Origin: Candidatus Wallbacteria bacterium
GTDB lineage: Bacteria > Muiribacteriota > JAQTZZ01
Reading direction: 5' to 3'
Length of the DNA: 64,000 nucleotides
NCBI GenBank assembly: GCA_028687545.1
Contig: JAQTZZ010000002.1
Span: forward strand, 139,635-203,634
The notes under the pieces are model-generated. The model was not told the origin of the DNA. It did no database searches and was given only the letters and a program-made list of their open reading frames with translations. The translations under genes were made by a program, and so were the position numbers. This document shows positions 4,641-62,087 of this stretch, one piece after another (the first letter of the stretch is position 1; each line of letters begins with the position of its first letter).

Positions 4641-4652
4641 ACACGCGATGAG

Positions 4653-7982: not shown

Positions 7983-7994
7983 AGTTTCTATACC

Positions 7995-36175: not shown

Positions 36176-37855
36176 CTATCCCAGGTCCAGAACCTCTATC
36201 CAGTAATTTTTCTCATTTTTGTCCAGGCTCTCCCCGAACAATGACAGGCCATTGCCGTCATCGCAGATGAATGAGAGGCGGCACTCCCGGTCCAGGCAGG
36301 GACTGGTGAAAAACACCGATATTTCACCGCCCTGCTGAGACTTGCTGGGCAGCCTGGCTTCCTTTTCAGTTCCGTTCAGAGATACTTTCATTGTCCCGGC
36401 ATTCCCGGATTGCGTGCTGGCTCTGAATCTGATACAGAGTTTGCGGGAAGAGGCTGCAGCGGAAAAAATGTACTCAATCCTGCCCTTGAATCTTCCGACC
36501 AGATGCGCCCAGCCGGTCCGGCACCACTGATCGCCAGACCAGTAATTCAGAGGAATCGGCTCGAATTTTCCGGAACTGTAATCTCTGATCTCGATTGCCA
36601 GAGTCCCGCCAGCTTGAAGGTGGTATTTTCCTCTTGGGATCGCTGCTCCGGTTTCCGGTCTGATACCTGTATGCAGAAAGTAAAATTCACTCAGGGCTTC
36701 TCTAGTCAGGTCCTTGGGCAGATAGGAAATCACAGCAGGATTCTGCCTCCCGAAATCAGTTTCTTCCAGCTGCCCGGTCTGACTGAAAAGCTCTGATCCA
36801 GGCATTGGACGGTAGAAACTTAATCCATAGCGTACATTATTTTGCCTGAGATGAGAGAGAAATTCCCCGGTCTTTGATAAATCTTCCATTGTCTCGCCTG
36901 GCAACCCGGCAATCGCCAGCACGAAGGGTTCAATGCCGTGGCAGTGGCAGATCTCCACTGCCCGCAATACCTGCTCGGGAGTAATGTTTTTCCTGATCCT
37001 CGCAAGCATTGAAACAGACCCGCTTTCCAGTCCGATGTCCAGCCGCCTGCACCCCATCCGGCGCAGCAGGTCTGCCACATGATCCGATATGTTGTCGGCT
37101 CGCGCATGAGAGCGGAATCTGATTTCCAGGCCATTTTTCTCAATCAATGCTGCCAGTTTCTGCAACTCCCTGAAATCTGTCAGCAGGTCTGCATCTTCAA
37201 AGGAAAAGCAGTCGATTCCGATTGTCCTGAAGTATTTGAATTCACTGATCAGCATTTCAGGATTGCGGAAATCTACCGTACCTTCGTAAAAAAAAGGATT
37301 GATACAGAATGTGCATTCATGTGGACAGCCACGGGAATAAAAAGTCAGCGCAGTTTTCGGCCCTTCGGGATTCTCAACGTCTTTGAGAGCAGGTTCCTGG
37401 TAAAGAGTCTGTCCCGGGTATTTAATGTATGGAAATTCAGATAAAGTTCCCAGATATTTCAACTGGGATGAAAGCAGTCCATGCCTGTATTTGTCGCTTT
37501 CCAGGCAGTCCAGCAGACTCTGAAAACGATTTTTGTAAATGATATAGTCGAATCCGGCATCCAAGTATTGCTTGAAATAATCGAAATACTCATGAAAAAA
37601 AACAATTCTGCATTGCCCTGACTTCAGTGCCCTGATTTTCATGGCCAGCTCCAGCACTCTCTTTTCTCTGGAAGTGAGGATGAAAATATCGTATAGAGCA
37701 AAGTCCTGGGGGAGGGTATTGTCCTGCAGCTCGAAAAAGGAATAATCGAACTTCCCTTCGCAGAGAGCACCGATGGTGAGAAGATTGAGCACCTCGTTCC
37801 GGCAGTATGAACCGGGACTTGTGGCATTAATAAGAGCAAGCCTGGATTTGACCAT
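36176..37855 (-). CDS. B12-binding-domain radical SAM protein with an extra C-terminal beta-rich domain
   Basis: N-terminal cobalamin-binding-like domain; radical SAM motif YSRGCPHECTFC (CX3CX2C); ~150-aa uncharacterised C-terminal extension; 559 aa. Confidence 0.8.
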   Translation of the reverse strand: MVKSRLALINATSPGSYCRNEVLNLLTIGALCEGKFDYSFFELQDNTLPQDFALYDIFILTSREKRVLELAMKIRALKSGQCRIVFFHEYFDYFKQYLDAGFDYIIYKNRFQSLLDCLESDKYRHGLLSSQLKYLGTLSEFPYIKYPGQTLYQEPALKDVENPEGPKTALTFYSRGCPHECTFCINPFFYEGTVDFRNPEMLISEFKYFRTIGIDCFSFEDADLLTDFRELQKLAALIEKNGLEIRFRSHARADNISDHVADLLRRMGCRRLDIGLESGSVSMLARIRKNITPEQVLRAVEICHCHGIEPFVLAIAGLPGETMEDLSKTGEFLSHLRQNNVRYGLSFYRPMPGSELFSQTGQLEETDFGRQNPAVISYLPKDLTREALSEFYFLHTGIRPETGAAIPRGKYHLQAGGTLAIEIRDYSSGKFEPIPLNYWSGDQWCRTGWAHLVGRFKGRIEYIFSAAASSRKLCIRFRASTQSGNAGTMKVSLNGTEKEARLPSKSQQGGEISVFFTSPCLDRECRLSFICDDGNGLSLFGESLDKNEKNYWIEVLDLG

Positions 37856-37856
37856 C

Positions 37857-39503
37857 TTATCGATTGTTGAGAAAAGCTCCCTGAATCTCAGGAGCTGAGT
37901 TGTTTTTCAAACAGGCCATTCCTGAAAGCAGCAGCAGTATCTTTTCAAATCCTTTATACCCTAAATTCCTGGTGTCTTCAAAAAGGCGCTGAGGCTCGAT
38001 TTTCACTCCATTCGAGGCGGAGAATTCACTCAGCATTTTGCAGAAAAAAGGTCTGCCTTTTTCAAACCAGCGGTCAATCGGCACTTTCAGGGGTGTTTTG
38101 GGTCTTGTGAGTACCTGTTCAGGCAGGTCATTGCGCATCAGTTCATGGAGGATGAATTTGCTCTTTTTCCCGTTCAGCCGGAAATCGTCGGGTAAAGACT
38201 GGAAAAAATTACGGAATCTATAATCTGCAAACGGAACCAATATTTCCGATTCAGCAGCATCAGCAATCCCCCTGATTCTAGGTAACTGATTGTCAGGAAG
38301 GAGTTCATCGTACTGAAAATCAGTCAGCGAATTCATGGGCTTCATCCATTCAATCCAGAAATGTTCCGGTTCAGTCCAACCTTTTTGAAACATCTCCTTT
38401 AATTCGTCTGAATTGAAATATGGCGTAAGATATTCCCTGTGATCAAAGATTTCCTGAAGTTCATCATTGAAAATGTCCTTCAGGATCGTGTTGCGGGGGA
38501 GATTGTCAAGCATCTCTACCGGAAAAAGACTGTAATAGCGGCTCTGCCGCTCTCTCTTTGCCAGAGCGGATAACTGATAATCATATCCCAGCAGCCCTTC
38601 ATCGCTCCCTGCACCATTCACAAAGCTGGAATGCCTTCCTGATAATGCAGCTATGAAGCTGAGCTGCCCCTGAGAACGAAGCAGGAAAGCCTTTTCAGAC
38701 AGAAGTTTTACCATCCAGTGTTTGAACATCTCAAATGTCAAATGGATTTTTTCATGTTTGATCCCAAGATATCTGGCAACTGCCTCGGCAGATTGAATCT
38801 CATTGTAATCAGGTTCGTCAAAAGTAATGGTATAGGCAGTCAAATTCCTGCCCAGCTTTTTCCCGGCTACTGCCAGTGATGACGAATCTATGCCTCCTGA
38901 CAGTAAAAGATTCAAGTCTTTACCGCATCTTAAATTCAGTGCATCCAGAATCAGAGCAAGCAGCGCCTTCTTTGCCTCAGCGAAACTGCCTCTGAAAACT
39001 TCAGCTTTCCAGGTATGGTATTTATCGATTTTCAGAGATTTTAAATTTAATTCCAGACAGTTCCCGGCTGGAAGGGATTGTACTCCAGTCCAGAAGGTCT
39101 GTGTCCCTGGAAGATAAGAATAGCGAAGAAATGACTGGACAGCATTCAGATTCGGAAGTGCCGGTTTCCCGGCCAGAATCGAAACATCGCAGGGATTTTC
39201 ACTGAAACTCAGCACACCCTGCTCCAGACTGTAATAAATCTGCCTGCAACCCATCCGGTCACGAATCAGCAGGCCCAGTTTTTTTTTCTGGTCATGGATC
39301 AGGATCACGGCTTCAAAGTTGAATTCGCGGCAGGCAGCAAGCCCCTTTGTCCTGTATTGTTCACAAAACAATGCTGCAGGGTTGGAAAGTTCAGACAATC
39401 CGAAAAACCTTCCTGATACCGCTACAGTGATCTCACTGGCTGAATGGACCAGCGCTTCTGAACAGATCAGCAGGTTTGATGAGAGGTCCAGCGTACCTCT
39501 CAT
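37857..39503 (-). CDS. asparagine synthetase B-like amidotransferase/adenylating enzyme lacking the N-terminal Cys nucleophile
   Basis: PP-loop LLSGGIDSSSLAV (the AsnB SGGxDSS motif). The N-terminus is MRGT, not MCG, and the ATG is fixed by an ATGA overlap with the upstream TPR gene stop. Confidence 0.8.
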   Translation of the reverse strand: MRGTLDLSSNLLICSEALVHSASEITVAVSGRFFGLSELSNPAALFCEQYRTKGLAACREFNFEAVILIHDQKKKLGLLIRDRMGCRQIYYSLEQGVLSFSENPCDVSILAGKPALPNLNAVQSFLRYSYLPGTQTFWTGVQSLPAGNCLELNLKSLKIDKYHTWKAEVFRGSFAEAKKALLALILDALNLRCGKDLNLLLSGGIDSSSLAVAGKKLGRNLTAYTITFDEPDYNEIQSAEAVARYLGIKHEKIHLTFEMFKHWMVKLLSEKAFLLRSQGQLSFIAALSGRHSSFVNGAGSDEGLLGYDYQLSALAKRERQSRYYSLFPVEMLDNLPRNTILKDIFNDELQEIFDHREYLTPYFNSDELKEMFQKGWTEPEHFWIEWMKPMNSLTDFQYDELLPDNQLPRIRGIADAAESEILVPFADYRFRNFFQSLPDDFRLNGKKSKFILHELMRNDLPEQVLTRPKTPLKVPIDRWFEKGRPFFCKMLSEFSASNGVKIEPQRLFEDTRNLGYKGFEKILLLLSGMACLKNNSAPEIQGAFLNNR

Positions 39504-39901
39504 GATTTACTTTTCCTGCAGTATTCGATCAATTCGAGAATTTTTTCATCCCGCTCATTTTCAGGAATTTTCTCAAGATAATCTAGAGCTTTCACGAAAT
39601 CACCGGACTGCTTGAAAAGGTTGCCGGTTTCATAAAGTGCTTCTGAATCAGAACCCAGTGCCAGCGCTTTTTCAAAATATCCGAATGACTCATCGAATTC
39701 TCCCATTTCACGCAACAGGATCCCCAGTCTGACATAATCGGTTTTTCCAGGATGCGGGTCGTCTTCAAGCCTTTCCTTGAGGATGCTGTAAGCGATCTGG
39801 TAGAGAGCTTTCAGGTAGTACTTGTCATCGCTTTTCGCCTGTTTCAGCAATTCTTTCAGCACCTGGTCATTATCAAGAAGATAAAATGAGTTATTCGACA
39901 T
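39500..39901 (-). CDS. small TPR-repeat protein (133 aa)
   Basis: Two to three TPR-like units; GAGGCGG Shine-Dalgarno before the ATG; stop overlaps the AsnB-like start. Confidence 0.6.
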   Translation of the reverse strand: MSNNSFYLLDNDQVLKELLKQAKSDDKYYLKALYQIAYSILKERLEDDPHPGKTDYVRLGILLREMGEFDESFGYFEKALALGSDSEALYETGNLFKQSGDFVKALDYLEKIPENERDEKILELIEYCRKSKS

Positions 39902-40120: not shown

Positions 40121-40939
40121 ATGAAAGTCATTATCACTGCAGCAGTCACAGGTGCAGAAACCACCCGCGCCCAGCAGCCGAATCTGCCGGTAACTCCGGC
40201 GGAAATCGCCCAGTCCACATATGAAGCCTGCATGGCCGGTGCAGCCATCGTCCACCTGCATGTACGAAAAGACGACGGGACTCCTACCCAGGATGTGGGT
40301 ATCTTTGAGAAAACAATTAAACTGATCCGCGAGAAATGCGAGATTGTGATCGAGATCACCACAGGCGGAGCAGTGGGCATGAGCGATGATGAGCGAGTGG
40401 CTCCGGTCAAACTCAAGCCCGACCTTGCGTCCCTCGACTGCGGCTCAGTCAATTTCGGCGACGACATCCTGCCCAACGGTTTCCCCAGCCTGCGCAGATT
40501 CGCCCGCCTGATGCGCGAACATGGCGTCAAGCCCACCATTGAATGCTTCGATTACGGCCACATCAACAATGCCAAGCTCCTGATCAAGGAAGGCCTGATC
40601 GATCCGCCTTATTATTTCACCTTTGTGACTGGTGTACCGGGTGGAATTCCGGGCACAGTCAAGAATCTTGTCTTCATGCGGGATGAGCTGCCTGAAAATA
40701 CTGTCTGGTCCAGCATCGGCATCGGCGGCAAGGCGTCGCTTCCCATGGGCCTGGCAGCCCTTCTGATGGGCGGCAATGTGCGCACCGGGTTCGAAGACAA
40801 CATCTATTTCAGGAAAGGCCAGCTCGCCAAGAGCAACGCCCAGCTCGTAACCCGGATCGTGGAGTTCGCCAAGGAACTGGGGCACGAGATCGCCACCCCG
40901 GCGGAAGCGAGAGAGATTTTAGGATTGAAGAAAAAGTGA
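40121..40939 (+). CDS. kce: 3-keto-5-aminohexanoate cleavage enzyme (BKACE/DUF849 family)
   Basis: N-terminal VIITAAVTGAETT...PNLPVTPAEIA...AGAAIVHLHVR matches the BKACE family; 272 aa; GGGGGTG Shine-Dalgarno; next to kdd and kamA. Confidence 0.8.
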   Translation: MKVIITAAVTGAETTRAQQPNLPVTPAEIAQSTYEACMAGAAIVHLHVRKDDGTPTQDVGIFEKTIKLIREKCEIVIEITTGGAVGMSDDERVAPVKLKPDLASLDCGSVNFGDDILPNGFPSLRRFARLMREHGVKPTIECFDYGHINNAKLLIKEGLIDPPYYFTFVTGVPGGIPGTVKNLVFMRDELPENTVWSSIGIGGKASLPMGLAALLMGGNVRTGFEDNIYFRKGQLAKSNAQLVTRIVEFAKELGHEIATPAEAREILGLKKK

Positions 40940-40976: not shown

Positions 40977-42017
40977 ATGAAAGGCAATAAGTTCGGAACC
41001 CATCGCGTGATCGAGCCCAAAGGAGTGCTGCCCCAGCCCGCGCTGGTGATCGACAATGACATGAATAAACTATACGACAATGAAATACTCTGCGATGTGA
41101 CCACGCTGAACGTAGACTCGGCAAGCTTCACCCAGATCAAGGACGAAGCCGTAAAAGACCCCAAAAGAATCGAAGAAATAATGCTCGGGATTGTAGAACG
41201 CTTTGGCAAGCATAAAAATCCTGTCACAGGCTCAGGAGGCATGTTCATCGGTAAAGTAGCCAGAATTGGTAAAGCGCTTAAAGGCAAGATCCCTCTTCAG
41301 GAAGGAGACAGAATCGCAAGCCTGGTCTCGCTCTCGCTCACTCCGCTGAAGATCAAGAAAATCAAGAAAATCCACATAGACAAAGATCAGGTGGACATCG
41401 AAGGCCAGGCCATCCTGTTCGAGTCAGCGATTTACGCCAAGCTGCCGGAAGACCTGGACGAGAAACTGGCGCTGGCAGTGCTGGATGTGGCAGGTGCGCC
41501 TGCTCAGACCGCCAAACTGGTGCGGCCGGGCAATACAGTGCTGGTGATAGGCGCAGCAGGCAAATCCGGCCTTCTCTGCTGCTATGTAGCCAAGAAATAT
41601 GCCGGTTGCACCGGCCGTGTGATTGCCCTGGTGCATAGCGAAAAAAGCCTGGACCTGATGAAAAAAGTGAATTTCATTGATAACGTGATCGTGGCCGAAG
41701 CCTCAAACGCAGTGGATGTGCTGGAAAAGGTGGAAGCAGTCACCAACGGACAGCTCTGCGACCTGGTGATCAACTGCGTGAGCCGTGAAAACACGGAGAT
41801 GGGATCGATTCTCCCCTGCAAAGACAATGGTACGGTCTATTTTTTCTCCATGTCCACGAGTTTCACCAAAGCAGCTCTGGGCGCCGAGGGAGTAGGCAAG
41901 GACGTGACCATGGTGATCGGCAACGGCTATACCAAGGATCATGCCGCGATCACTATCGATTTAATGAGGGAATCCGAATGGCTGAGGAAATATTACGAGA
42001 AAAAGTACGTCGGCTGA
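40977..42017 (+). CDS. kdd: L-erythro-3,5-diaminohexanoate dehydrogenase (probable)
   Basis: 346 aa with Rossmann motif VLVIGAAGKSG; GAGGAGG Shine-Dalgarno; sits between kce and kamA as in lysine-fermentation operons. Assignment leans on context as well as sequence. Confidence 0.65.
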   Translation: MKGNKFGTHRVIEPKGVLPQPALVIDNDMNKLYDNEILCDVTTLNVDSASFTQIKDEAVKDPKRIEEIMLGIVERFGKHKNPVTGSGGMFIGKVARIGKALKGKIPLQEGDRIASLVSLSLTPLKIKKIKKIHIDKDQVDIEGQAILFESAIYAKLPEDLDEKLALAVLDVAGAPAQTAKLVRPGNTVLVIGAAGKSGLLCCYVAKKYAGCTGRVIALVHSEKSLDLMKKVNFIDNVIVAEASNAVDVLEKVEAVTNGQLCDLVINCVSRENTEMGSILPCKDNGTVYFFSMSTSFTKAALGAEGVGKDVTMVIGNGYTKDHAAITIDLMRESEWLRKYYEKKYVG

Positions 42018-42028
42018 AAGGAGTGCCT

Positions 42029-43273
42029 ATGGCTAGAGTCTTTTCGGATGTGCCTGAAAAAAAGTGGCAGGACTGGCAGTGGCAGCTGCAGAACCGCCTT
42101 ATGAAACTGCCTGATCTGAAGAAATGCTACCCTCTGACTGGCCAGCAGGTCAAGGATATCCAGAAAGTGCTGGTCAGCTTCAGGATGGCGATCACCCCAT
42201 ATTACCTTTCACTGATCGACCCTCAGAATCCTGACGATCCTGTGATGAAACAGGCTATTCCCACTATCCATGAAACAGAATTTTACCCCACAGATATGGA
42301 TGATCCCCTGCATGAGGAAGTGGATTCGCCTTGTCCTGGTCTCACCCATCGCTACCCTGACCGGGCGCTGCTTTTAGTGACTCATGTCTGCTCGATGTAC
42401 TGCAGGCACTGCACACGCAGGAGAAAAGTCGGAGACAATGAGGACCGGCACCTTCCCAAAAAGCAGCTGCTGGCCGGCTTTGATTACATCAGGAAAACGC
42501 CGCAGATCAGGGATGTGATTCTCTCAGGCGGTGACCCCTTCACCTTGACTGATCAGGAAATAGAGTGGCTGCTCTCTGAGCTTCGCAAGATCAAGCATGT
42601 GGAGATCATCCGTATCGGCACCAGGACTCCGGTCGTACTTCCCATGCGCATCACGGAAGCTCTCTGCCGGATGATCAAGAAGTACCATCCGGTCTACGTC
42701 AATACTCACTTCAATCATTTCCAGGAAATCAACGCAGACTCCAAACGGGCCTGCGAAATGCTTGCAGACCACGGTATTCCGCTCGGCAACCAGTCAGTGC
42801 TTTTAAAAGGAGTCAACGACAATCCGGCAGTGATGAAAAAGCTGGTCTGCGACCTCTTGAAGATCCGCGTCAAACCCTATTACATCTATGAATGCGACAT
42901 GTCCCGCGGCATCAGCCATTTCAGGACCCCTGTCGCCACAGGCATCAGCATCATGGAAAACCTGCGCGGACATGTCTCTGGCCTCGCTGTCCCGCATTTT
43001 GTAATCGACGCTCCAGGCGGAGGCGGAAAAGTGCCTGTGATGCCGACCTACATCATCTCCCAGGGGCCCGGTACGATCGTGCTGCGCAACTACGAAGGCA
43101 AAATCATTTCCTGCCACGACCGTCCGGGCGAAGCCGAAACCGAGGACCTGCCCAAAAACCTGAGCAGATACTATTCCATGGAAGGTGTGGCGGAACTCCT
43201 GAACACCCAGAATCACGCGCTGGATTACGGCAAGATCCTCAAGAAAGGTCCCAAGCGCGGAAAAAGAAAATAA
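42029..43273 (+). CDS. kamA: L-lysine 2,3-aminomutase (radical SAM, PLP-dependent)
   Basis: KamA N-terminal W.DWQWQL region, radical SAM CSMYCRHC, and a conserved C-terminal PLP region. Start set at the ATG at 42029 after AAAGGAG; the track's upstream start at 41978 overlaps kdd. Confidence 0.85.
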   Translation: MARVFSDVPEKKWQDWQWQLQNRLMKLPDLKKCYPLTGQQVKDIQKVLVSFRMAITPYYLSLIDPQNPDDPVMKQAIPTIHETEFYPTDMDDPLHEEVDSPCPGLTHRYPDRALLLVTHVCSMYCRHCTRRRKVGDNEDRHLPKKQLLAGFDYIRKTPQIRDVILSGGDPFTLTDQEIEWLLSELRKIKHVEIIRIGTRTPVVLPMRITEALCRMIKKYHPVYVNTHFNHFQEINADSKRACEMLADHGIPLGNQSVLLKGVNDNPAVMKKLVCDLLKIRVKPYYIYECDMSRGISHFRTPVATGISIMENLRGHVSGLAVPHFVIDAPGGGGKVPVMPTYIISQGPGTIVLRNYEGKIISCHDRPGEAETEDLPKNLSRYYSMEGVAELLNTQNHALDYGKILKKGPKRGKRK

Positions 43274-43317
43274 TTGCTCTGATTTTTAAACAGTCTGTTT
43301 CAAAATCGAATTCCAAG

Positions 43318-43350
43318 AAGAGAAATCCAACGGGTTTCTCTTCTTTTTTT
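43318..43350 (+). terminator. intrinsic terminator after kamA
   Basis: Perfect 9-bp stem GAAGAGAAA / TTTCTCTTC with a 9-nt loop, followed directly by a T7 run. Confidence 0.5.
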
Positions 43351-43395
43351 GAACCGATTCCATTTTTTTTCGTATAGTATGTAAAAGAAGGCAAA

Positions 43396-43899
43396 ATGGA
43401 CGCAAACGAAACACTCAAAAAATGGTTTTCCGAATATCACAGAGAGCTGTTTCTGTTCCTGCGGAAGCTGAGCAGAGACCATCATCTGGCGCAGGACCTG
43501 ATCCAGGAAACTTATGTCAGGGCTTACCTGAAATTCCACCTGTACGATCCCTCTCGCGGAAAACTGAAAAACTGGCTCTACCGGATCGCCATAAATCTTT
43601 ATCACGACCATCTGCGTTTTGAAAGCAGAGAACAGGAAACAGTCCGGAAACTGTCTGTGGAAAAACAGCTGGAATCCCAGGGCGACAAAAACGGAGAGGA
43701 ATGCTTTAAAATTCTACTGGAGCGAGCAGTGGACAGCCTGATTCCGGAGAAAAGGGAAATTCTGCTGTTATCGCTGGACAATAAGCTTGAAGAGGTAGGG
43801 CGGATTCTGGATCTGCCTGAGGGAACGGTAAAAAGCCGGCTTTTTCATATCAGACGGGAACTGCAGTCCCTGATCGAAAAACTGGAAACGGAGGCGTGA
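43396..43899 (+). CDS. ECF-type RNA polymerase sigma-70 factor
   Basis: Region 2 (HLAQDLIQETYVRAYLKF) and region 4 helix-turn-helix (LPEGTVKSRLFHIRREL); 167 aa. Confidence 0.85.
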   Translation: MDANETLKKWFSEYHRELFLFLRKLSRDHHLAQDLIQETYVRAYLKFHLYDPSRGKLKNWLYRIAINLYHDHLRFESREQETVRKLSVEKQLESQGDKNGEECFKILLERAVDSLIPEKREILLLSLDNKLEEVGRILDLPEGTVKSRLFHIRRELQSLIEKLETEA

Positions 43900-43900
43900 A

Positions 43901-44662
43901 ATGGGTATTAAAGACTTGAAGGAAAAACTGGACAGAATGGACGATTACATGCAGGACAAAAATGAGTCAATCCCGGAATGGGATGAGATTTCCGGCACTG
44001 TATACACGAAAATGGTGGACAGGACTTTCGGATATCTGATTTCATCACTGGCTGCGTGTTTCTTTCTGACGTTTGTGTTTCCAAGATATTATGCCGTCTG
44101 CAGCTTGAGCGGAAGCGATCCCGCAGAGTTCCTCAGACAGATAACGATTCTCTTTCTAAATCCCGGTATGCTGATTTCCACGATACTCGCCCTGCTTTTT
44201 TTCCTCGGGGGAACTGCACTTTATTTTTCCCATAACTGGGGACGGCTTCTGCTGAACTATTGCTTCGTGTTCTGGGGGCTGATAATCATCTATGAGATGC
44301 GCCACGGATTCGGCATGTTTCTCTCAGCAGAGATTTCCCAGAAGCTCCTGGCTCTGATGCTCTGGTTCTCAGTCATTCCTTTCATCTATGCCTATTTTGT
44401 CTATCATCAGCAGAGACTTTTTCATCTGAGCTTCTTGAAAGGCCTCATCCTGATCATGATGGCTGTCAATCTCTATATCATCTTCAACAGCATCTTCCTG
44501 GCACCGGCCGCGGCAGACAGACATGCCAATTACTTGCCGCTCGCCTTCTTTGCAGTCATCCTGATGCAGACTTACGAGGGACTCGGAACCTTCTTTCCCT
44601 CATTGCGTCAGATGCTGCATGGAAAATCAAAAGCCTCACAACCCCGTGAAACTGGAGCCTGA
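43901..44662 (+). CDS. polytopic membrane protein, possible anti-sigma factor partner
   Basis: Starts 1 nt after the sigma factor stop; soluble ~40-aa N-terminus then ~6 TM helices; no conserved motif. Confidence 0.5.
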   Translation: MGIKDLKEKLDRMDDYMQDKNESIPEWDEISGTVYTKMVDRTFGYLISSLAACFFLTFVFPRYYAVCSLSGSDPAEFLRQITILFLNPGMLISTILALLFFLGGTALYFSHNWGRLLLNYCFVFWGLIIIYEMRHGFGMFLSAEISQKLLALMLWFSVIPFIYAYFVYHQQRLFHLSFLKGLILIMMAVNLYIIFNSIFLAPAAADRHANYLPLAFFAVILMQTYEGLGTFFPSLRQMLHGKSKASQPRETGA

Positions 44663-44670
44663 GGCATGGT

Positions 44671-45684
44671 GTGTGTCTGGATTTTCGTGACAATACCGCG
44701 GGTTTGGGATACAATTACTGCATGCCGAAAGCCGCGCTTGAAAAACTCTTTTCAGAACCTGCCGTGTTCCTGACAGGCAACAGGAAAAATGCGGGGAAAA
44801 CCACGGTTCTGAATCACCTTGTCAGATACGCAAATTCGAAAAGAGAGGCGGAACATGTCTCTCTTTTTTCCATTGGCTGGGATGGCGAAGGACGTGACAG
44901 GATCTTTGAGAATCGGAAACCGGAAATCACTGTTTTCCAAGGCATGCGCTTTCTGACCGCTGAATACGCCCTGTCGCGAGCGGATTTCCCGTATCGGATT
45001 CTGTCAGGCTTCTCTTTCCGCTCCAATGCTGGAAATTACTATCTATGCCAAGCTCTGGCTGAAGGAAAAATCGAACTGATCGGACCTGAAGCTAATTATC
45101 AGCTGGATGAGGTTTTTTCGATTATCAAGGAATCGATGCCTGAAGGCACAGTATTGATCGACGGGGCGCTGGACAGGATCTCACAGATGGCTTCGCGGAA
45201 AGCGCCCGGCTTTGTCTTCATTTTCTCCCCTCTGCCGGGTAAAACCACTGAACAGATGCTGGCTGATTTCAGGCTGCAGCTCTCGCTTTTTGCACTTCCA
45301 AAAGCCGGATTGCTTTCACCCGGGGAGTCGGAAATCACGGGTTACAGTAAAGGCAAGGTCGTGCTGGAATGCGGAAAAAACGATCCTTTCACCGCTGAAT
45401 CGCTTGAGCTTGTTTATATTAAAGGCGCTCTCACCAGGAGCCTTGCCGATAAATTCCCCGGGGGGCTGGAACTGGTGGTGCAGGACTTCACCAGGATTTT
45501 TCTGGGTCCTGAAATTGAGCGGCGCAGGATCAGCGTGCTCGAACAGCCGGTGCCGCTGCTTTTCTGTTATAATCCAGGTCTGACAGGTATTGGTTTTCAG
45601 TCAATCCACAAAGAGCTTCTGGAAATGAATTCTGGATTTTTCCCCTCAGTCCGACTCTTAGATGTGATGGAACTGGAGAATTAG
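44671..45684 (+). CDS. hypothetical P-loop-containing protein
   Basis: Walker A-like FLTGNRKNAGKTTVLN near the N-terminus. GTG start at 44671 preceded by GAGG; the alternative ATG at 44722 has a weaker ribosome-binding site. Confidence 0.5.
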   Translation: MCLDFRDNTAGLGYNYCMPKAALEKLFSEPAVFLTGNRKNAGKTTVLNHLVRYANSKREAEHVSLFSIGWDGEGRDRIFENRKPEITVFQGMRFLTAEYALSRADFPYRILSGFSFRSNAGNYYLCQALAEGKIELIGPEANYQLDEVFSIIKESMPEGTVLIDGALDRISQMASRKAPGFVFIFSPLPGKTTEQMLADFRLQLSLFALPKAGLLSPGESEITGYSKGKVVLECGKNDPFTAESLELVYIKGALTRSLADKFPGGLELVVQDFTRIFLGPEIERRRISVLEQPVPLLFCYNPGLTGIGFQSIHKELLEMNSGFFPSVRLLDVMELEN

Positions 45685-45685
45685 C

Positions 45686-47263
45686 ATGGAAAGCGCAGTC
45701 CGCCTCTATACAAAGTATTCTCTGCAGAAAAGTAAAACCGCCAGGCTGTCCCTGCTCAAGAGGGTCTCAGCCGAACACCCGGAAATCCCGCTGCAGGGCG
45801 AAAAAGAAAAATTCTTTGAACTGGTGATAATTGAAGAGCAGGACAAGCCTCTGAGGGATTTTGCCCTTGGAATTTTACACAAGCTGAAAGGGTACGAAGT
45901 TAAGCCTGTAAAGACTGCCGGACGCCCTCCTGCCAAACCTGTCAAAATCGAGCAGAATTTCAGATTCTCGGTGCAGCGCGAAAATTTCCATGGCCCTCCT
46001 GCTCAGCTCAACAGCGAATTGAAAAAGCACTTTGCCGAACAATGCCGCGATCCGTTTTTTTCAGAAGTGCCGTTTCTCAACTACCTGCGCCGCGATCTGC
46101 GTGAAATCATCCGTAAAATCCTGAAAAAACCGCCTGTTTTCGGATTCTTTCAGTCAAAGCAGCACAATGGAGAAGCAGTTTATACTCTGGAAAAATCACT
46201 GGACCTGCAGCTTTTCTCAGGGCTGATCCCGCTGGACAGAGCGTTTTTTGCGGAAAATCACCTGCTGGACCCGGTGGCCAGGCTGGTGCCTGAACTCTAT
46301 TATACTCTCGTGCTGCTGGACCCGGATGGTCTGACACTGATCTTCAGGGGAGGCCTGGAACAGGTCAGCGCCTGCTATATGCGTCTGCCTGTTTCCGCTG
46401 TTTCGGACTGTTACTATCGAGACAATCGCTGCTTCCTAAAATTGACTGGCGAGATGCTGGTTTTCAGCGAGGTCTCAGAAGATGTTTCCTCTGAAATGGA
46501 GCTTGCCGTAAAGCTGAGCCGGGTTCTCGTTTCAGCGGAAGACCTTGGAATCATCGAGCGTGAAAAAAAGCGCCTTTCAGTGGAACTCAAGGGACGCATC
46601 ATCACGCAGGCGGTTTACAGCAAAAGACTTCAACTGATCACCCGGCTGAAGGATGCGATTTTTTCCCAGAGAAACATCGGCAGCATCCTGGGAAACCTGC
46701 TTTCTAAAAGTTCAGACGCCAGTAACAGGCTTATCTTCCGGGAATACGGGAAAGAGCTCTCGCTCCTTTTTTCGGACATCGTAGGCTTTACCAAAAAAAC
46801 TCAGCAGATCGGCACTGTCGGGATCATGGGAGTGCTTGCACTTTACGAAAAAATTGCGGAAAACGCAGCCGTAAAATATTCCGGACAGATCATCAAGAAA
46901 ATGGGAGACGGGATTCTGTTTTCCTTTGAAAAAAAGGAAAACGCAGCGCAATGCGCTTTCCATCTTCTTTCGGAAATCGATTCCACCAATCAAAATCTGG
47001 AGCATAACCACCGCTTTCAGATCAGGATCGTGCTTAATTCAGGCCTGATCTTTCAGAAAAACGGCGACATCTTCGGGGATCCGGTGAACATGATTTCCAG
47101 GATAGAAAAGGAAGCCGGGGCAGGGGAAATCGTAGCTACTGAAAGCTTCATCACCGGGATTTCTTCTGAATTTCAATGTCAGAGCCTGGGGGAAAAAAAT
47201 CTCAAGGGTTTTGAGGAACCAGTAACAATTTTCAGAATCATCAAAACCCCGGAGGACAGATGA
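45686..47263 (+). CDS. class III adenylate/guanylate cyclase-domain protein with ~330-aa uncharacterised N-terminal region
   Basis: C-terminal cyclase homology domain (LLFSDIVGFT...KKMGDGILFSF...RIVLNSGLIFQKNGDIFGDPVNMISRIEK); starts 1 nt after the upstream stop. Confidence 0.75.
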   Translation: MESAVRLYTKYSLQKSKTARLSLLKRVSAEHPEIPLQGEKEKFFELVIIEEQDKPLRDFALGILHKLKGYEVKPVKTAGRPPAKPVKIEQNFRFSVQRENFHGPPAQLNSELKKHFAEQCRDPFFSEVPFLNYLRRDLREIIRKILKKPPVFGFFQSKQHNGEAVYTLEKSLDLQLFSGLIPLDRAFFAENHLLDPVARLVPELYYTLVLLDPDGLTLIFRGGLEQVSACYMRLPVSAVSDCYYRDNRCFLKLTGEMLVFSEVSEDVSSEMELAVKLSRVLVSAEDLGIIEREKKRLSVELKGRIITQAVYSKRLQLITRLKDAIFSQRNIGSILGNLLSKSSDASNRLIFREYGKELSLLFSDIVGFTKKTQQIGTVGIMGVLALYEKIAENAAVKYSGQIIKKMGDGILFSFEKKENAAQCAFHLLSEIDSTNQNLEHNHRFQIRIVLNSGLIFQKNGDIFGDPVNMISRIEKEAGAGEIVATESFITGISSEFQCQSLGEKNLKGFEEPVTIFRIIKTPEDR

Positions 47264-48861
47264 AAGATATTTTCGTCCATCTAAGAATCGCCGAATTTCT
47301 GGAGCAGGAATGGGAGCTGTATTCTCCTGTCTGCCGCCGCCGGAAAGAGGATTTCCTTCACTTCCATACTCCAGGGGAGGAATGCAATTTGAGACATGAA
47401 TGGATGATCCAGCGGCATTTTCTGGAGTTTCTCACTAAGCTCCCGGATGCCGGTGAAAATGTCCGTGAATCACTGCGGAAAATTCCGGATGTCAGCAGCA
47501 TGCTCGAACAGGAGAATCTGGCTGTATTCGAACTTTTTGACCTGAAAAAATTTCTGCTGCATTTACGGAAAATCAGGGAAATCTGGTCCTCCAGCTCCTT
47601 AAGACCCTTTGTTTTCAAGCACGCTTATCAAAATCTCTGGCAGTTCCTGACTTTTTCCCAGGATGAGCATAGTTTCGCGATAGTATCAGGTTATTCCAGG
47701 GCATTAAGCAGCATCCGCACAAAAATTTCCAGCCTGCGCAATGCCCGCGACAGGCGCATCCAGGCTTTCTACAGACAGCTCGAACGGAAATTCAAGCTGA
47801 AAAAGCGGATCATGTCCGAAGAATTCACTGTTGATCTGGAGTCAAAACTTTTACCTGTTCTGAGAAAGTCCCCTCATTTTACGCTGATCGAAGAGAAAGG
47901 CGGCTATTGCCTGTTCAGGATCAGATTTCCTTCTGCTGTCGAACGCCTGAATCAATCGATCAACAATCTGCGCAGAAAGGAAGCCGCTGCCGAGCTGAAA
48001 GTGCTGGACAGGCTCAACGCCTGCTATCGGAAAGTCAGGTCTAATCTGAAAAAAGATTACGAAAACCTGATACTCTGGGAAAAGTATTTTTCCCTGGCCA
48101 GTATGTCGCAGAAACTGGGGCTAATTGAACCTGAATTGAGAAAGCGCGGAGTTTCTGTAAAAAACGGCCGTTATCTGCCTCTGGCAAAGGATCTGGCATT
48201 GCAGAATCTCAACTACACTCCGCTTGATTTCGAAACATCAACCAGCGCCAGCATCATCTCAGGCTCCAACATGGGCGGCAAGACACAGGTCCTGAAAGCC
48301 ATCGGATTCCTGCAGGGGCTGTTCCAGCTCGGTTTCTTCCTGCCGGCTGAGACATTTTCCTCAAGCCTCTTTTTTGAAATCTACTTTTCCGCAGCCGAGC
48401 GTTTTCCGGAAAAAGCCGGACTCTCCAGTTTCGGGTCAGAAATCAGCTACATCTCAGAAGCCCTGGAAAAGATAGACCACCGCTGCCTGTACCTGGTGGA
48501 CGAATTCTCGCGCACCACCAATATCCGCGAAGGCCTGGCCCTCAATTACGCGCTGCTCTCGCATTTTTCAGGGTCAAAATCCACTCTGGTGCTGACCACT
48601 CACTTTGACATTCTCACCGGATATCTCAAAGTCTCCCAGTTCCAGACCGGCGGCTTGAAAGGCAAAAAAGAACTTCCCTCCCTTTATAAACTCCACGGCC
48701 CTGAGCGCGCCGCATATTTCCACAAGCTGATGGACTACCACCTGCACCCGAAAAAGGGTTCCGCAGTGCCCGAAGAAGCGCTCACCATAGCCGAAATCCT
48801 GGGCCTGCAGCCCGGCATCATCGCTGATGCCAGGAAGTTTTTAGTTAAACTGAGAAAGTAA
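47260..48861 (+). CDS. MutS domain V-like ABC-type ATPase (no mismatch-binding or Smr domain evident)
   Basis: Walker A SGSNMGGKTQVLKA, Walker B LYLVDEF, and LVLTTHFD (MutS-type His motif); coiled-coil-rich N-terminal half; 4-bp overlap with the cyclase gene. Confidence 0.65.
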   Translation: MKDIFVHLRIAEFLEQEWELYSPVCRRRKEDFLHFHTPGEECNLRHEWMIQRHFLEFLTKLPDAGENVRESLRKIPDVSSMLEQENLAVFELFDLKKFLLHLRKIREIWSSSSLRPFVFKHAYQNLWQFLTFSQDEHSFAIVSGYSRALSSIRTKISSLRNARDRRIQAFYRQLERKFKLKKRIMSEEFTVDLESKLLPVLRKSPHFTLIEEKGGYCLFRIRFPSAVERLNQSINNLRRKEAAAELKVLDRLNACYRKVRSNLKKDYENLILWEKYFSLASMSQKLGLIEPELRKRGVSVKNGRYLPLAKDLALQNLNYTPLDFETSTSASIISGSNMGGKTQVLKAIGFLQGLFQLGFFLPAETFSSSLFFEIYFSAAERFPEKAGLSSFGSEISYISEALEKIDHRCLYLVDEFSRTTNIREGLALNYALLSHFSGSKSTLVLTTHFDILTGYLKVSQFQTGGLKGKKELPSLYKLHGPERAAYFHKLMDYHLHPKKGSAVPEEALTIAEILGLQPGIIADARKFLVKLRK

Positions 48862-48875
48862 ATATTGTCAACTAT

Positions 48876-50129
48876 TTATGCCGCACAAGATAACTCGACA
48901 TTTTCACATGTTTTCGCATCAGCTCTGTACCAACAGAATCTCAATGCTACAGCCAGAATGATCTGAACGATTGCAGACAGGATCAGGATCGCCCAGGCTG
49001 AGGTGAAAGCTGCGGCAAAAGTGCCGATCAGGAGCGATAAGATCGCGGCCGGGCTTTCCAGGAATGAGAACAGGGCAAAGACCTGGCCCCTGTTTTCGTC
49101 GGCCACCTGCTGCTGGACAATCGTGTTGAGAATGATGGTGTGAGCGGCGCTCGCCAGGCCCAGAAAAGCGAAAATCAGGATTGCCAGACGATTATAACCG
49201 TTCAGCAGGAACCACAGGAAAAACAGTCCGTCCCAGAAGAGGATGTTCAGGTAAAGTCTGAGCGGATTGCGGCCATCCAGGATCAGGCCCAGAAGCAGAC
49301 TGCCGACTACGATCCCGATTCCGAGCGCTGAGAGAAGCACACCCCAGGCGAGCTCTGCCTTGTCGCCCAGGCCCAGGCCGTCCTTGAGATGGAAATAGAT
49401 CAGGATTCCCTGCATTGTCATGGCGATGGTCACGAAAGTGTTGATCAGAAGCATCCTGCGCAAGTTCAGGTCTGACCAGACTGCAGACAAACTCCTGCCT
49501 ATGGGCTGCCGGTTATTTTTCGATTTTACAGAAATATGTTTCTCATCGACCCTCAGATTGTAAATGATCAGGGCTGAGATCAGAAAGGTAGCGCCGTCGA
49601 TCAGGAAAGCAGGTGCAGTTCCAAGCAGCCCGGCCACGGCAGCGCCGAAGGCAGAGCCGCAGATCAGGTTGACATTGCTCAGGGATGAATTGAAGGAATT
49701 GTAAAGCACCAGGTCCTCGCGGCGCACCAGGTTCGGTTCCAGAGCGCTCTGGGCCGGCTGCCTGAATACATAGACCAGGGAGCTCAGGAACGCAAAGAAG
49801 TAAATCCCTGGCAGGCTGTCCACAAAAATCACGCAAGCAATGGCCAGGGCGGAAAAGACATCGCAGAGCACCATTACCATCCTGCGGGACAAGCAGTCCA
49901 CGATCCGTCCTGCGAACAGCCCGCACAGCAGGAATGGCACGAATTTCATGACTGTCAGGAAACCCAGGTCAGTGATTCTCCCGCCTGAGATGTCATAGAC
50001 TTTTTTCAGAAGCGCGAAATAGCTGACATGATTCCCGAGGCTCGAAATAAAACCCGCGGAAATCAGCAGCATCACCGGCCGGTTGGCAAACAGCATCCCG
50101 TATTTTTTGAGTGCAGCCAGTCTTTTCAT
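48876..50129 (-). CDS. MFS transporter
   Basis: 417 aa, ~12 predicted TM helices, MFS-like loop motifs. Confidence 0.8.
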   Translation of the reverse strand: MKRLAALKKYGMLFANRPVMLLISAGFISSLGNHVSYFALLKKVYDISGGRITDLGFLTVMKFVPFLLCGLFAGRIVDCLSRRMVMVLCDVFSALAIACVIFVDSLPGIYFFAFLSSLVYVFRQPAQSALEPNLVRREDLVLYNSFNSSLSNVNLICGSAFGAAVAGLLGTAPAFLIDGATFLISALIIYNLRVDEKHISVKSKNNRQPIGRSLSAVWSDLNLRRMLLINTFVTIAMTMQGILIYFHLKDGLGLGDKAELAWGVLLSALGIGIVVGSLLLGLILDGRNPLRLYLNILFWDGLFFLWFLLNGYNRLAILIFAFLGLASAAHTIILNTIVQQQVADENRGQVFALFSFLESPAAILSLLIGTFAAAFTSAWAILILSAIVQIILAVALRFCWYRADAKTCENVELSCAA

Positions 50130-52182: not shown

Positions 52183-52357
52183 TTCTTATTTTTTCTCCAG
52201 CAGAATCCACTCATCCTGGAAATTCACGATGTCTTCGATGAACTTCTTGTAACTCGCGTATTCAGAAGCCGGATAGGTGTCGCCGACTCTCTTGAAATCC
52301 AGGTTGACTTTCAAAATACTGCGGCTGCTTGTATCGAATGAGGCTGTAAACTCCATG
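52182..52357. repeat. direct repeat copy 1 (176 bp, identical to 60035..60210)
   Basis: Base-by-base comparison shows an exact 176-nt identity, same orientation; identity ends abruptly after ...GTAAACTCCATG. Confidence 0.95.
52186..52357 (-). pseudogene. orphan 3'-terminal fragment (last 57 codons) of the DUF3857/transglutaminase-like gene at 60039..62087
   Basis: Encodes MEFTASFDTSSRSILKVNLDFKRVGDTYPASEYASYKKFIEDIVNFQDEWILLEKK, identical to the C-terminus of the intact gene; upstream codons are unrelated. Confidence 0.75.
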
Positions 52358-52481
52358 TTCAGATCGACCTGCTGAAAATATTCAATTTCTTCAAAGTTTG
52401 AATACACCTCCTTTATTAGAGTATCCGCTCAAATCCACGATTCCGGCTTTACACTTATCGGATGTGCCAGCATGGCTCAAG

Positions 52482-60034: not shown

Positions 60035-60210
60035 ATTCTTATTTTTTCTCCAGCAGAATCCACTCATCCTGGAAATTCACGATGTCTTCGATGAACTTCT
60101 TGTAACTCGCGTATTCAGAAGCCGGATAGGTGTCGCCGACTCTCTTGAAATCCAGGTTGACTTTCAAAATACTGCGGCTGCTTGTATCGAATGAGGCTGT
60201 AAACTCCATG
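60035..60210. repeat. direct repeat copy 2 (176 bp, identical to 52182..52357); this copy is the 3' end of the intact gene
   Basis: Exact identity to 52182..52357 by direct comparison. Confidence 0.95.
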
Positions 60211-62087
60211 CCGCCGAAATTCAGCTTCCTCTTCTCCGGGCAAAAGGCCAGTCCGTAATCTTTGGGCAGCTTCACCTGGTAGACAAAGTGACTCTCAGTC
60301 ACACCATGGAAAAACATCGGGTAAGCTCTCTGTTCCCTGGCCACTTCAGAGGCTGAAAAGAGATAGAATTCAGGAAGCTGGAACGCCAGCATGGATCCTG
60401 CCCTCTTCGGGTATTCAGAAGCACTGAATGAGTAAGAAATTCCCAGATTGTTCGTGAGATCTCCCAGATTCTGGTATTCATATTTTTGGAGTACAGCCCT
60501 GGGATGGATTCTGGCGATACTCTTCTCCCACTCCTTATCCAGTTCATTTTTTGAAAGATAATAATTCTTGCGGTAATTATTCTGAGTGCTGCCTTCGAAT
60601 TTGTCTGTCACAGAGGCTCTCAGATCTCCGTTTTCGTTCAGATTCAGGTCGAAAGTGCTGAAACTCTTGGCAGGCACATAAGGCAGGTCGACCAGTTTCC
60701 GCTCCGCGAGCGACAAAGCCGGAGAACCCTGGCAGCCGCCCGGGAAATCACCCATAGTCATGGAGTCGTCATTGACATAGATCAGTTTGCCGTTGTCCAG
60801 CTTTAATCCAAGATTGCCGAACTGTTCGACACACGGCACAGAAACCTCAAGTGAACCTGAATTGCGGTCCGAGAGCAGCAGAAAGTCGCTCTTCACTCCA
60901 AGTTCGGAAAGCAGAGCATGAAACAGAAACGTCTTGTCAACTTTGGAGCCCATTTTCTTTTCGTAAATGACGGCCGGATCCAGCGGATAGTAATGAGTAT
61001 TGGAGAGGCTGACCCAGGCTGTGACTATATTCTTGGTCAGGAACTGGTAGAGTGCGGCAATCTTTTCTTCCCGGCTTTTTGCGGAAGCCGTGATGGTCTC
61101 GCAGGCTGATTTAAGGGCAGGGGAACTTTTATCCCAGGCGGAATATTTTGCCGCGAGAGCTGCTGCGATCCCTGCATAGTCATAGGCAGGCGAGACGGTC
61201 AGAGTCGGAAATACATCCGAAACGGGCGGTGTGTTTTCCTCTTCCTGGTAAGGCGGGATTTTCTTCATTTCAAAACTGTATGCAACTCCTGCGCCTGAGC
61301 CGGACTTTTTCAGGAGATTCCTGTCCGCATTCCGAAGTGACAGATTCAGTTTGAGCCCTGCCGGAGCTTCGATGCGGACTCTGGCGCTGAGATACGGTAC
61401 GGACGAAGTGAAGGATTCGACAAAACATTGAGGATTGTCCAGGATGTCCCTGGAAGTATATCGCTCTTCATAGGAATACTCCACGAAAGATCCGCTCTCC
61501 ACCTTGGGGATGATCACCTTGACTTCCCTGGCTTTTTCATAAAGCGGATAAGAGGAATAAGTGGAAGTATCTGTGACTGCATAGTCATTGGCATATGTGA
61601 TCCTGCCGTCAGTGATCGAGCGGGCGTACCTGATCGTGAAATCCGACCTGCCCGGGATATAGTTGAGATAGAAGGTCCCGATGCTCTTGCCGCCTTCTTT
61701 GTTGACCCTGCCCAGGAAATGATGGGAAAAAACGGCTCCGCCGTCGGTCTTATAGGTAATGGTGGTGTCCGACATGAAGCAGATATAATCATACTGGTCG
61801 TATTCTTTGAAGTCCTTGCGGGAAATCACTTTTCTCACCAGCTGATCCTTGATCTCTTCAGGCTTGTAGACACCCTTTTCCTCGTATTCGCGGAAAAGGT
61901 CCAGCCTGGTCAGCTTGTCCTGTTCGATCGTGATGTTCTTGCCGGTTTCCCTCTCGCAGAACACGATCGCGCCCTTGCTGTACTCCACTAAACGGCCGTT
62001 GATTTCCTTGCCGTCCTTGAGTATCAGCAGGTCGGCACAGGCAGAGAACCCGAAAACAAGCAGAAGAGCTAAAAGGATGTTTCTCAT
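60039..62087 (-). CDS. DUF3857-like / transglutaminase-like domain lipoprotein (682 aa); the transglutaminase core appears to lack the Cys
   Basis: Lipoprotein-type signal peptide (MRNILLALLLVFGFSAC). The region that aligns with the neighbour's GDC segment reads VDKTFLFHALLSELGVKSD; 4-bp overlap with the upstream paralog. Confidence 0.7.
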   Translation of the reverse strand: MRNILLALLLVFGFSACADLLILKDGKEINGRLVEYSKGAIVFCERETGKNITIEQDKLTRLDLFREYEEKGVYKPEEIKDQLVRKVISRKDFKEYDQYDYICFMSDTTITYKTDGGAVFSHHFLGRVNKEGGKSIGTFYLNYIPGRSDFTIRYARSITDGRITYANDYAVTDTSTYSSYPLYEKAREVKVIIPKVESGSFVEYSYEERYTSRDILDNPQCFVESFTSSVPYLSARVRIEAPAGLKLNLSLRNADRNLLKKSGSGAGVAYSFEMKKIPPYQEEENTPPVSDVFPTLTVSPAYDYAGIAAALAAKYSAWDKSSPALKSACETITASAKSREEKIAALYQFLTKNIVTAWVSLSNTHYYPLDPAVIYEKKMGSKVDKTFLFHALLSELGVKSDFLLLSDRNSGSLEVSVPCVEQFGNLGLKLDNGKLIYVNDDSMTMGDFPGGCQGSPALSLAERKLVDLPYVPAKSFSTFDLNLNENGDLRASVTDKFEGSTQNNYRKNYYLSKNELDKEWEKSIARIHPRAVLQKYEYQNLGDLTNNLGISYSFSASEYPKRAGSMLAFQLPEFYLFSASEVAREQRAYPMFFHGVTESHFVYQVKLPKDYGLAFCPEKRKLNFGGMEFTASFDTSSRSILKVNLDFKRVGDTYPASEYASYKKFIEDIVNFQDEWILLEKK

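Follow-up and report, generated by a model that had tools for sequence, protein, structure and literature searches.

What would bring a class III nucleotidyl cyclase gene into the space between the genes for a P-loop protein and a MutS-like ATPase, downstream of a sigma factor of the extracytoplasmic function (ECF) type? The question is raised by a tightly packed five-gene run in a metagenome-assembled genome (MAG) of Candidatus Wallbacteria, of which a 64-kb stretch was analysed (hereafter the window, to the whole of which the coordinates refer). We suggest that the locus is a lysine-fermentation cluster re-wired in a single lineage of Wallbacteria, with the five genes as its accessory and regulatory arm, a reading towards which we lean with moderate confidence. 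What makes the locus unusual is the absence of kamD and kamE, the insertion of the sigma factor and membrane protein genes, and the position of the cyclase gene, which is translationally coupled to kamB on one side and to kamC on the other.

The five open reading frames (ORFs) all lie on the + strand at 43396-48861, as in a first-pass annotation of this DNA:

43396..43899, + strand: ECF-type sigma factor gene (167 aa)
43901..44662, + strand: polytopic membrane protein gene (253 aa)
44671..45684, + strand: kamB, for the P-loop protein of the pair annotated as lysine 5,6-aminomutase reactivase (337 aa, GTG start)
45686..47263, + strand: gene for a sensor-type class III (IIIc-like) adenylyl cyclase (525 aa)
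47260..48861, + strand: kamC, for the MutS2-like ATPase of the pair annotated as lysine 5,6-aminomutase reactivase (533 aa)

Read from the sequence, the junctions are a 1-nt gap between the sigma factor and membrane protein genes, an 8-nt gap between the membrane protein gene and kamB, a 1-nt gap between kamB and the cyclase gene, and an ATGA 4-bp overlap between the cyclase gene and kamC; a GGAG-type ribosome-binding site precedes the downstream gene at each of the four. An independent gene caller recovered the same five products from the Logan assembly of the same organism (L020), and the ORFs, the junctions and this second gene call all bear out the layout, coordinates, 1-8 nt gaps and 4-bp overlap originally described. 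The original domain calls (an ECF sigma factor, a membrane protein, a P-loop protein, a class III cyclase, and a MutS domain V protein without mismatch-binding or nuclease domains) hold as well. It is the identity of the P-loop protein and the MutS-like ATPase, and with it the meaning of the locus, that has changed.

KamB and KamC

The MutS-like ATPase, which had been regarded as stand-alone, is KamC: it matches the NCBIfam model NF052383 ('lysine 5,6-aminomutase reactivase ATPase KamC') over residues 14-527 with 342.8 bits against a cutoff of 300, and canonical, kamD-linked KamCs score 311-351 on the same model (508 for the KamC of L007). MutS_V (332-457) is its sole Pfam domain, with no mismatch-binding or Smr domain, and the Walker A motif GSNMGGKT (335-342), GLSSFG-E (387-394), DE (414-415) and TH (447-448) are invariant across seven sequences. 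The P-loop protein, likewise, is not the uncharacterised protein it was taken for; it is KamB, an accessory to lysine 5,6-aminomutase clusters. Its score on NF052386 ('reactivase subunit KamB') is 148.9 bits, under the cutoff of 210. KamBs linked to kamC, kamD and kamE in four other lineages score just 134-154 bits, however, and only that of L007 passes, with 357; a score under the cutoff is therefore normal for the family, and the model is too narrow to decide KamB membership by its cutoff. The window protein aligns over its full length with the linked KamBs and keeps the motifs G-x2-KNAGKT, S-x-G-x-DGE, KP, EL-x-GP and VDGA (invariant residues in four sequences: G36, K39-T44, S67, G69, D71-E73, K83-P84, E135-L136, G138-P139 and D164-A166). 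Its gene sits between kamA and kamC, as expected of the order in other clusters, split from the former by the sigma factor and membrane protein genes and from the latter by the cyclase gene.

Both proteins are 27-33% identical to the canonical copies, which are 25-46% identical among themselves. This identity range, the range of scores and the kept motifs together argue that, judged by sequence, the pair is an orthodox KamC and KamB. We also considered that they might be divergent paralogs, an idea that finds no support in the identity matrix or the NCBIfam scores, both of which lie in the normal range of the family. One shared peculiarity concerns the N-terminus of KamC in the window and in the one other context where kamC is linked to the cyclase gene (contig L001, described below). 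In both proteins the motif '(S/T)P(Y/F)G(R/K)xxK' ('PYG') is degraded (residues ~20-45; window 47260-47400; L001 8196-8330), and both have a 3-residue insertion near it. As a mark of uncoupling from kamD/kamE the loss of 'PYG' is not diagnostic, since a KamC whose gene is followed by kamD (P0053, on L018) has lost it too.

MutS2 is an endonuclease and also a ribosome-collision factor. The solved structures closest to KamC are those of MutS2, with residues 129-455 of KamC aligning with the core/clamp and domain V ATPase (residues 135-456 of 7qv3/8qpp, E 7e-18). Unlike MutS2, KamC has no KOW, Smr nuclease or mismatch-binding domain, and it scores 143 bits against a cutoff of 400 on TIGR01069. 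A different kind of likeness is found among the maintenance factors of other cobalamin enzymes. DdrAB, EutA and MeaB carry out the ATP/GTP-driven exchange of damaged cobalamin in diol dehydratase, ethanolamine ammonia-lyase and methylmalonyl-CoA mutase, respectively. For lysine 5,6-aminomutase (5,6-LAM), an E2 component responsible for 'reactivation and ATP regulation' has been known biochemically since 1973 and is molecularly poorly defined. According to a review, this auxiliary E2 protein reactivates 5,6-LAM and confers ATP regulation on it (PMC9081730). The role of DdrAB, EutA and MeaB, all reactivases or chaperones of adenosylcobalamin (AdoCbl) enzymes, is analogous to the one proposed for KamB/KamC as the E2 of 5,6-LAM. 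In fold they are unrelated to the pair: by sequence KamB is without a relative in the PDB, and KamC resembles MutS and is neither Hsp70-like nor G3E-like.

Of the systems compared, the locus comes closest to this accessory pair in lysine-fermentation clusters, where it has been drawn before as 'HP' and 'mutS' genes (Perret et al., 2011, Fig. 2; PMC3149608). The copies of Fusobacterium nucleatum, Cloacimonas and Bacteroidetes belong to the same families as those of the window and stand in the same order downstream of kce-kdd-kamA, and the window copies have the same P-loop and MutS-type motifs and the same score range as the copies linked to kamD/kamE. Unlike the canonical pair, the pair in the window has a cyclase gene in its midst and no kamD/kamE after kamC; unlike the canonical clusters, the window has an ECF sigma factor gene, a membrane protein gene, a terminator-like hairpin and a promoter-like motif between kamA and kamB. 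The first-pass view that the operon is not a described module is thus only partly borne out, for KamB/KamC are a known pair of the lysine-fermentation locus, while the insertion of the cyclase and sigma factor genes is unusual.

Lysine-fermentation genes upstream of the operon

Directly upstream of the five genes, and on the same strand, the window holds three genes that the first-pass annotation had left out of its reading, each of them above the equivalog cutoff of its family:

40121..40939, + strand: kce (NCBIfam NF052387, 387 bits, cutoff 382; Pfam BKACE in the independent gene call)
40977..42017, + strand: kdd, L-erythro-3,5-diaminohexanoate dehydrogenase (NCBIfam NF052381, 267.3 bits, cutoff 200)
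41978..43273, + strand: kamA, lysine 2,3-aminomutase (TIGR03820, 553.9 bits, cutoff 525.4)

All three encode enzymes at the core of lysine fermentation by way of beta-lysine and 3,5-diaminohexanoate, and the window kdd is 60-64% identical to the kdd of canonical clusters. In its longest form the kamA ORF shares 40 nt with kdd; in the independent gene call kamA begins at 42029 (414 aa), with no overlap, and this is probably the actual start. The genes for the downstream part of the pathway (kal/kat, CoA-transferase and thiolase) were not found within the window. Degraded copies of these genes, or of kamD/kamE, were considered for both the window and L001 and rejected, the tblastn searches being negative; kamD and kamE are presumed to be encoded elsewhere in the genome, if at all.

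Divergent from kce, at 36176-39900 on the - strand, are genes for a small TPR protein (~133 aa), an asparagine-synthase-like amidotransferase (548 aa) and a B12-binding radical-SAM protein (559 aa), which may form a peptide- or lipid-modification cassette.

A cyclase with a very rare N-terminal region

The 525-aa cyclase carries the Pfam domain Guanylate_cyc (PF00211) at residues 357-516, with 45.3 bits against a gathering threshold of 21.9, and in the PDB the domain is closest in sequence to Ma1120, an adenylyl cyclase of class IIIc (E 9e-17). The two metal-binding Asp residues (D364 and D408), on which the first-pass annotation had let its cyclase call depend, are both kept, as are the other four catalytic residues: the specificity pair K404 and D461, which is of the adenine type, and the transition-state residues N468 and R472. 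All six align to Ma1120, and none varies among the window protein, P0002 and P0003. The C-terminal domain (aa 356-518) is a bona fide class III cyclase with the class III fold, and its product is most likely cyclic AMP (cAMP).

The remainder of the protein is another matter. The first-pass annotation had assigned its N-terminal region to no known family, and this holds: an exhaustive HMMER search of 1.84 billion representative proteins found the N-terminal ~340 aa in five proteins only, all of them 513-525 aa long, two from Wallbacteria and three from Muiribacteriota. In 185,579 species genomes and the JGI metagenomes no further lineage was found to carry the family, and only Muiribacteriota loci were added. 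AlphaFold models of the protein are of moderate confidence (pLDDT, the predicted local distance difference test, of 76-77.5, from an alignment of 5 sequences). They predict a four-helix bundle (aa 4-68), a disordered linker, an alpha/beta region, a PH-like beta-sandwich (aa ~206-283) of six to seven strands with a helix cap, and then a long helical linker (289-354) into the cyclase domain. Structural comparison of the N-terminal region gave no convincing match, the matches being generic helical-repeat ones and weak PH/PTB-like ones. That the domain might occur as a standalone protein of canonical kam clusters was also considered and rejected, as all five instances are fused to a cyclase or pseudo-cyclase domain. 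Set against the class IIIc adenylyl cyclases Ma1120, Rv1264, Rv1900c/LipJ-type and CyaB of P. aeruginosa, the window protein differs in its N-terminal ~340 aa, which by sequence are related to nothing beyond the five proteins, and in the placement of its gene inside the accessory operon of a B12 enzyme. The very rare architecture of this cyclase within class III (IIIc-like) is new.

Gene neighbourhoods in other genomes

The KamC neighbourhoods compared are those of Elusimicrobiota, Muiribacteriota, HGW-Wallbacteria-1, a delta-proteobacterial MAG and metagenome contigs without assignment. L006, L007 and L017 show the canonical order, kce-kdd-kamA-kamB-kamC-kamD-kamE, and L005, L016, L018 and L019 the order kamC-kamD-kamE; kamD directly follows or overlaps kamC in all seven contexts other than the cyclase-linked ones, and in neither of the two that are cyclase-linked. 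The three distal genes, whose joint conservation in other genomes the first pass had made a condition of its reading, occur together nowhere but in the window: KamB-KamC is widespread without the cyclase, and the cyclase-kamC pair is found in two genomes, in the second of them without KamB.

This second genome is Wallbacteria STB_16 (L001), in which an ortholog 38% identical to the window cyclase is followed by KamC (44% identical, 322.8 bits) and then by a major facilitator superfamily (MFS) gene. The pair is preceded by a 151-nt intergenic gap. Directly upstream of it, at 3016-6436, lie genes for a BbrUII/HgiDII-like HATPase_c_3 protein and for an AAA_15/21 ATPase with a PtuA/MADS3-like N-terminus, together with an overlapping 184-aa ORF without a family, which gives this stretch the look of a small defence island. 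Farther downstream the window and L001 also share a DUF3857 gene pair with 48-62% identity, and the block is thus part of a longer syntenic stretch.

In the window the intact copy of this DUF3857 pair spans 60042-63994; in L001 it directly follows the MFS gene. At 52189-52359 (- strand) of the window, after a gene for an S41/CPAF-like peptidase, a 57-aa stretch is 44% identical to the C-terminus of the L001 DUF3857 protein, and ~8-10 kb (with genes for MscS, an ArsB/NhaD-like transporter, OtsAB, TetR and ClC) may have been inserted or rearranged in the window relative to L001. An MFS gene of the MFS_3/TIGR00900 type adjoins kamC in both genomes (48876-50129, - strand, in the window; 9832-11091, + strand, in L001). 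The two are probably not orthologs, at 24% identity and in opposite orientation, and their place next to kamC is either a coincidence or an old, rearranged linkage.

A third Wallbacteria genome, HGW-Wallbacteria-1 (L016), has a kam cluster without a cyclase gene. In it a 1088-aa PAS/GAF hybrid histidine kinase (4823-8089) is followed after a 7-nt gap by kamC-kamD-kamE and hence takes the position that the cyclase has in the window, and kamA-kamB is displaced from kamC by three genes, with DUF2059 and Amt genes between them on the other strand. Regulators embedded in the cluster are also found elsewhere, namely a sigma-54 activator in L007 and a helix-turn-helix (HTH) protein in L006. Taken with the sensor kinase of L016, these are instances of lineage-specific regulatory insertion, a pattern that the sigma factor and cyclase of the window therefore fit.

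In Muiribacteriota the gene of the cyclase family lies between a gene for a ~400-aa GNAT-like protein and rpmB (loci: L003 1823-4614, with a 2-nt gap to the GNAT-like gene; L008 8802-11575 and L009 8817-11542, with overlaps of 1-4 bp). The GNAT-like gene is 70-76% identical between Muiribacteriota lineages, and the cyclase-family protein is ~20-30% identical to the window protein. We asked whether the ~400-aa protein upstream of these homologs could be KamB, and rejected this; BLASTP found no similarity between them, and the protein is weakly GNAT-like.

Sigma factor, membrane protein and operon boundaries

The sigma factor consists of regions 2 and 4 only (Pfam Sigma70_r2 at 11-78 and r4_2 at 107-156). 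It passes the superfamily model TIGR02937 with 74.1 bits (cutoff 42.9), and its best NCBIfam subfamily matches, to SigM, SigY and SigW, are each under their cutoffs. The membrane protein, whose gene starts 1 nt past the sigma factor stop codon, has no family match in Pfam, NCBIfam or PADLOC; its hydropathy profile shows a cytoplasmic N-terminus of 41 aa and ~5-6 hydrophobic segments, taken as transmembrane. This position and the short cytoplasmic N-terminus suggest a candidate anti-sigma factor. The two genes are inserted between kamA and kamB, and neither L001 nor L016 has a counterpart to them. Three further features bear on the limits of the operon:

43315..43345, + strand: terminator-like hairpin between kamA and the sigma factor gene (14-bp stem, T-run)
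43350..43374, + strand: ECF-type promoter-like motif TGAAC-N16-CGTA, 22 nt 5' of the sigma factor start codon (suggestive only)
48876..50129, - strand: convergent MFS transporter gene (TIGR00900-type), the 3' boundary, where kamD/kamE stand in other genomes

The gap between the kamA stop (43273) and the sigma factor gene is 122 nt. The hairpin within it is the best terminator-like hairpin of the region, with -18.8 kcal/mol and z = -2.97; one of 200 shuffles folds equally well. ECF promoters have the consensus 'AAC...CGT', which the motif TGAAC-N16-CGTA resembles. The motif has a single match in the 64 kb, where 0.4 would be expected, and at least one match is found in 35 of 100 shuffles, so that it is not significant alone; the site also overlaps a sigma-70-like match, TTGAAC-18-TATAGT. 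Given a hairpin and a promoter-like motif in this gap, the five genes plausibly form their own transcription unit, separate from kamA. No lysine or cobalamin riboswitch or other Rfam element was detected at the locus (at the gathering score or E <= 1).

Other features of the window

Elsewhere in the window, 10137-18107 (- strand) is a single ORF of 2656 aa that consists almost wholly of TPR and HEAT repeats. At 2001-7982 (+ strand) are tandem genes for proteins of 879 and 1109 aa, each with N-terminal radical-SAM and SPASM domains and the second fused to TPR repeats; they are preceded by a gene for a 615-aa TPR protein.

Discussion

How might such an arm work? In the reading we favour, KamB and KamC, whose genes are translationally coupled to kamD/kamE in other phyla, would still maintain, in an ATP-dependent way, a KamDE whose genes lie elsewhere, the NCBIfam-annotated reactivase corresponding to the biochemical E2 of the suicide-prone lysine 5,6-aminomutase, which depends on AdoCbl and pyridoxal phosphate (PLP). 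The ECF sigma factor and its membrane-embedded partner would give the accessory arm a signal-responsive promoter of its own. The adenylyl cyclase would act as a class III homodimer with a sensor domain specific to the lineage, most likely making cAMP; it would be co-translated with KamB and KamC, and a second-messenger signal would hence be made together with, or gated by, the machinery that maintains the aminomutase. The functional link between the cyclase and KamB/KamC is one that we infer. In favour of the reading as a whole, the cyclase-kamC adjacency is kept in a second Wallbacteria genome, at 38% (cyclase) and 44% (KamC) identity.

There are several observations that weigh against this proposal. 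Neither kamD nor kamE, remnants included, was found by tblastn in the 64-kb window or on the 17.6-kb L001 contig. Near the cyclase-kamC pair of L001 there is no kamB, kamA, kdd or kce, an unexpected setting for a reactivase of two subunits. In Muiribacteriota the kam cluster is fully canonical and the cyclase-family gene lies elsewhere, and the family thus has no intrinsic tie to lysine fermentation; furthermore, the Muiribacteriota proteins P0059 and P0060 have degenerate catalytic motifs and are probably pseudo-cyclases. No cAMP receptor, whether a cyclic-nucleotide-binding or a CRP-type protein, is encoded in the window. Finally, the role of KamB/KamC as the ATP-dependent reactivase of lysine 5,6-aminomutase is taken from the NCBIfam annotation and should be read as putative, and in the literature searched we found no experimental paper that equates E2 with KamB/KamC.

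In a rival reading the cyclase and KamC would be a Wallbacteria-specific two-protein signalling module, in which KamC, a MutS2-like ATPase of the chaperone type, has been re-purposed and controls the sensor-cyclase, or is controlled by it, independently of the aminomutase. No linkage other than that of the cyclase gene with kamC is kept in both Wallbacteria genomes; the L001 pair begins after its own intergenic gap, on a contig with none of kamB, kamA, kamD or kamE; the rule that kamD follows kamC breaks in just the two cyclase-linked contexts; and the KamCs of both have the altered N-terminus, with 'PYG' lost and three residues inserted. Yet these KamCs diverge from the canonical ones no more than the canonical ones do among themselves and keep every invariant motif, and 'PYG' is gone from one kamD-followed KamC too. 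The window, moreover, has kamB, kamA, kdd and kce all present, the wider synteny with L001 means that the adjacency may be no more than inherited gene order, and the module would rest on two genomes; we regard it as fairly unlikely. It is also conceivable, and in our judgement unlikely, that nothing beyond neutral scrambling is at work, in which the kam cluster of Wallbacteria is breaking up and has taken in the cyclase, sigma factor and membrane protein genes as functionally unrelated passengers. Such a process would account for the disrupted cluster of HGW-Wallbacteria-1, where three unrelated genes and a sensor kinase split kamA-kamB from kamC-kamD-kamE, for the unrelated and conserved neighbourhood that the cyclase family has in Muiribacteriota, and for sigma factor and membrane protein genes that neither L001 nor L016 shares. 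What it does not lead one to expect is an insertion as tightly coupled on both sides as that of the cyclase gene, with a 1-nt gap on one side, a 4-bp overlap on the other and a ribosome-binding site at each, nor an adjacency that has outlived divergence to 38-44% identity.

A more specific proposal, which we hold to be quite unlikely, is that in one Wallbacteria clade a KamC freed from its aminomutase client forms a new ATPase-gated cAMP signalling unit with the rare sensor-cyclase, or that the N-terminal domain of the cyclase docks on KamB/KamC and so reports, by way of a second messenger, the state of repair of the cobalamin enzyme. Very improbable, in our view, is a cyclic-nucleotide anti-phage or stress defence system of the kind to which the first-pass annotation had likened the operon. 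Pycsar and CBASS likewise place a nucleotide cyclase beside an NTPase, PADLOC gives weak matches of the cyclase to PycC (E 3.4e-5, 21 bits, residues 356-414 only, that is, 59 residues) and of KamC to AbiLi (19 bits), and the L001 pair lies just downstream of the defence-like genes for the BbrUII-like HATPase and the AAA ATPase with the PtuA/MADS3-like N-terminus. These PADLOC matches, however, reflect generic domain-level similarity. Unlike Pycsar and CBASS, the operon has no gene for a cyclic-nucleotide-binding, TIR, transmembrane-effector or nuclease protein; no effector with a cyclic-nucleotide-binding domain was found with Pfam, NCBIfam or PADLOC, in agreement with the first-pass remark that no clear effector is evident in the operon. 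The specificity residues of the cyclase are the Lys/Asp pair of adenylyl cyclases, the flanking genes encode lysine-fermentation enzymes, KamB and KamC are indistinguishable from the metabolic family, and the distribution is that of one small clade, neither patchy nor mobile.

The value of a re-wired lysine-fermentation cluster would depend on whether the link between the cyclase and KamB/KamC is functional. If it is not, what we describe is a scrambled lysine-fermentation cluster of an uncultured lineage, and its value lies in the correct annotation. In either event, a very rare sensor domain has been defined, with five instances among 1.84 billion representatives, and it is confined to two candidate phyla. 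Should the link prove functional, it would be the first case in which the machinery that maintains a radical B12 enzyme is tied directly to a cyclic-nucleotide signal, and it would offer a handle on the role of the barely studied KamB/KamC pair.

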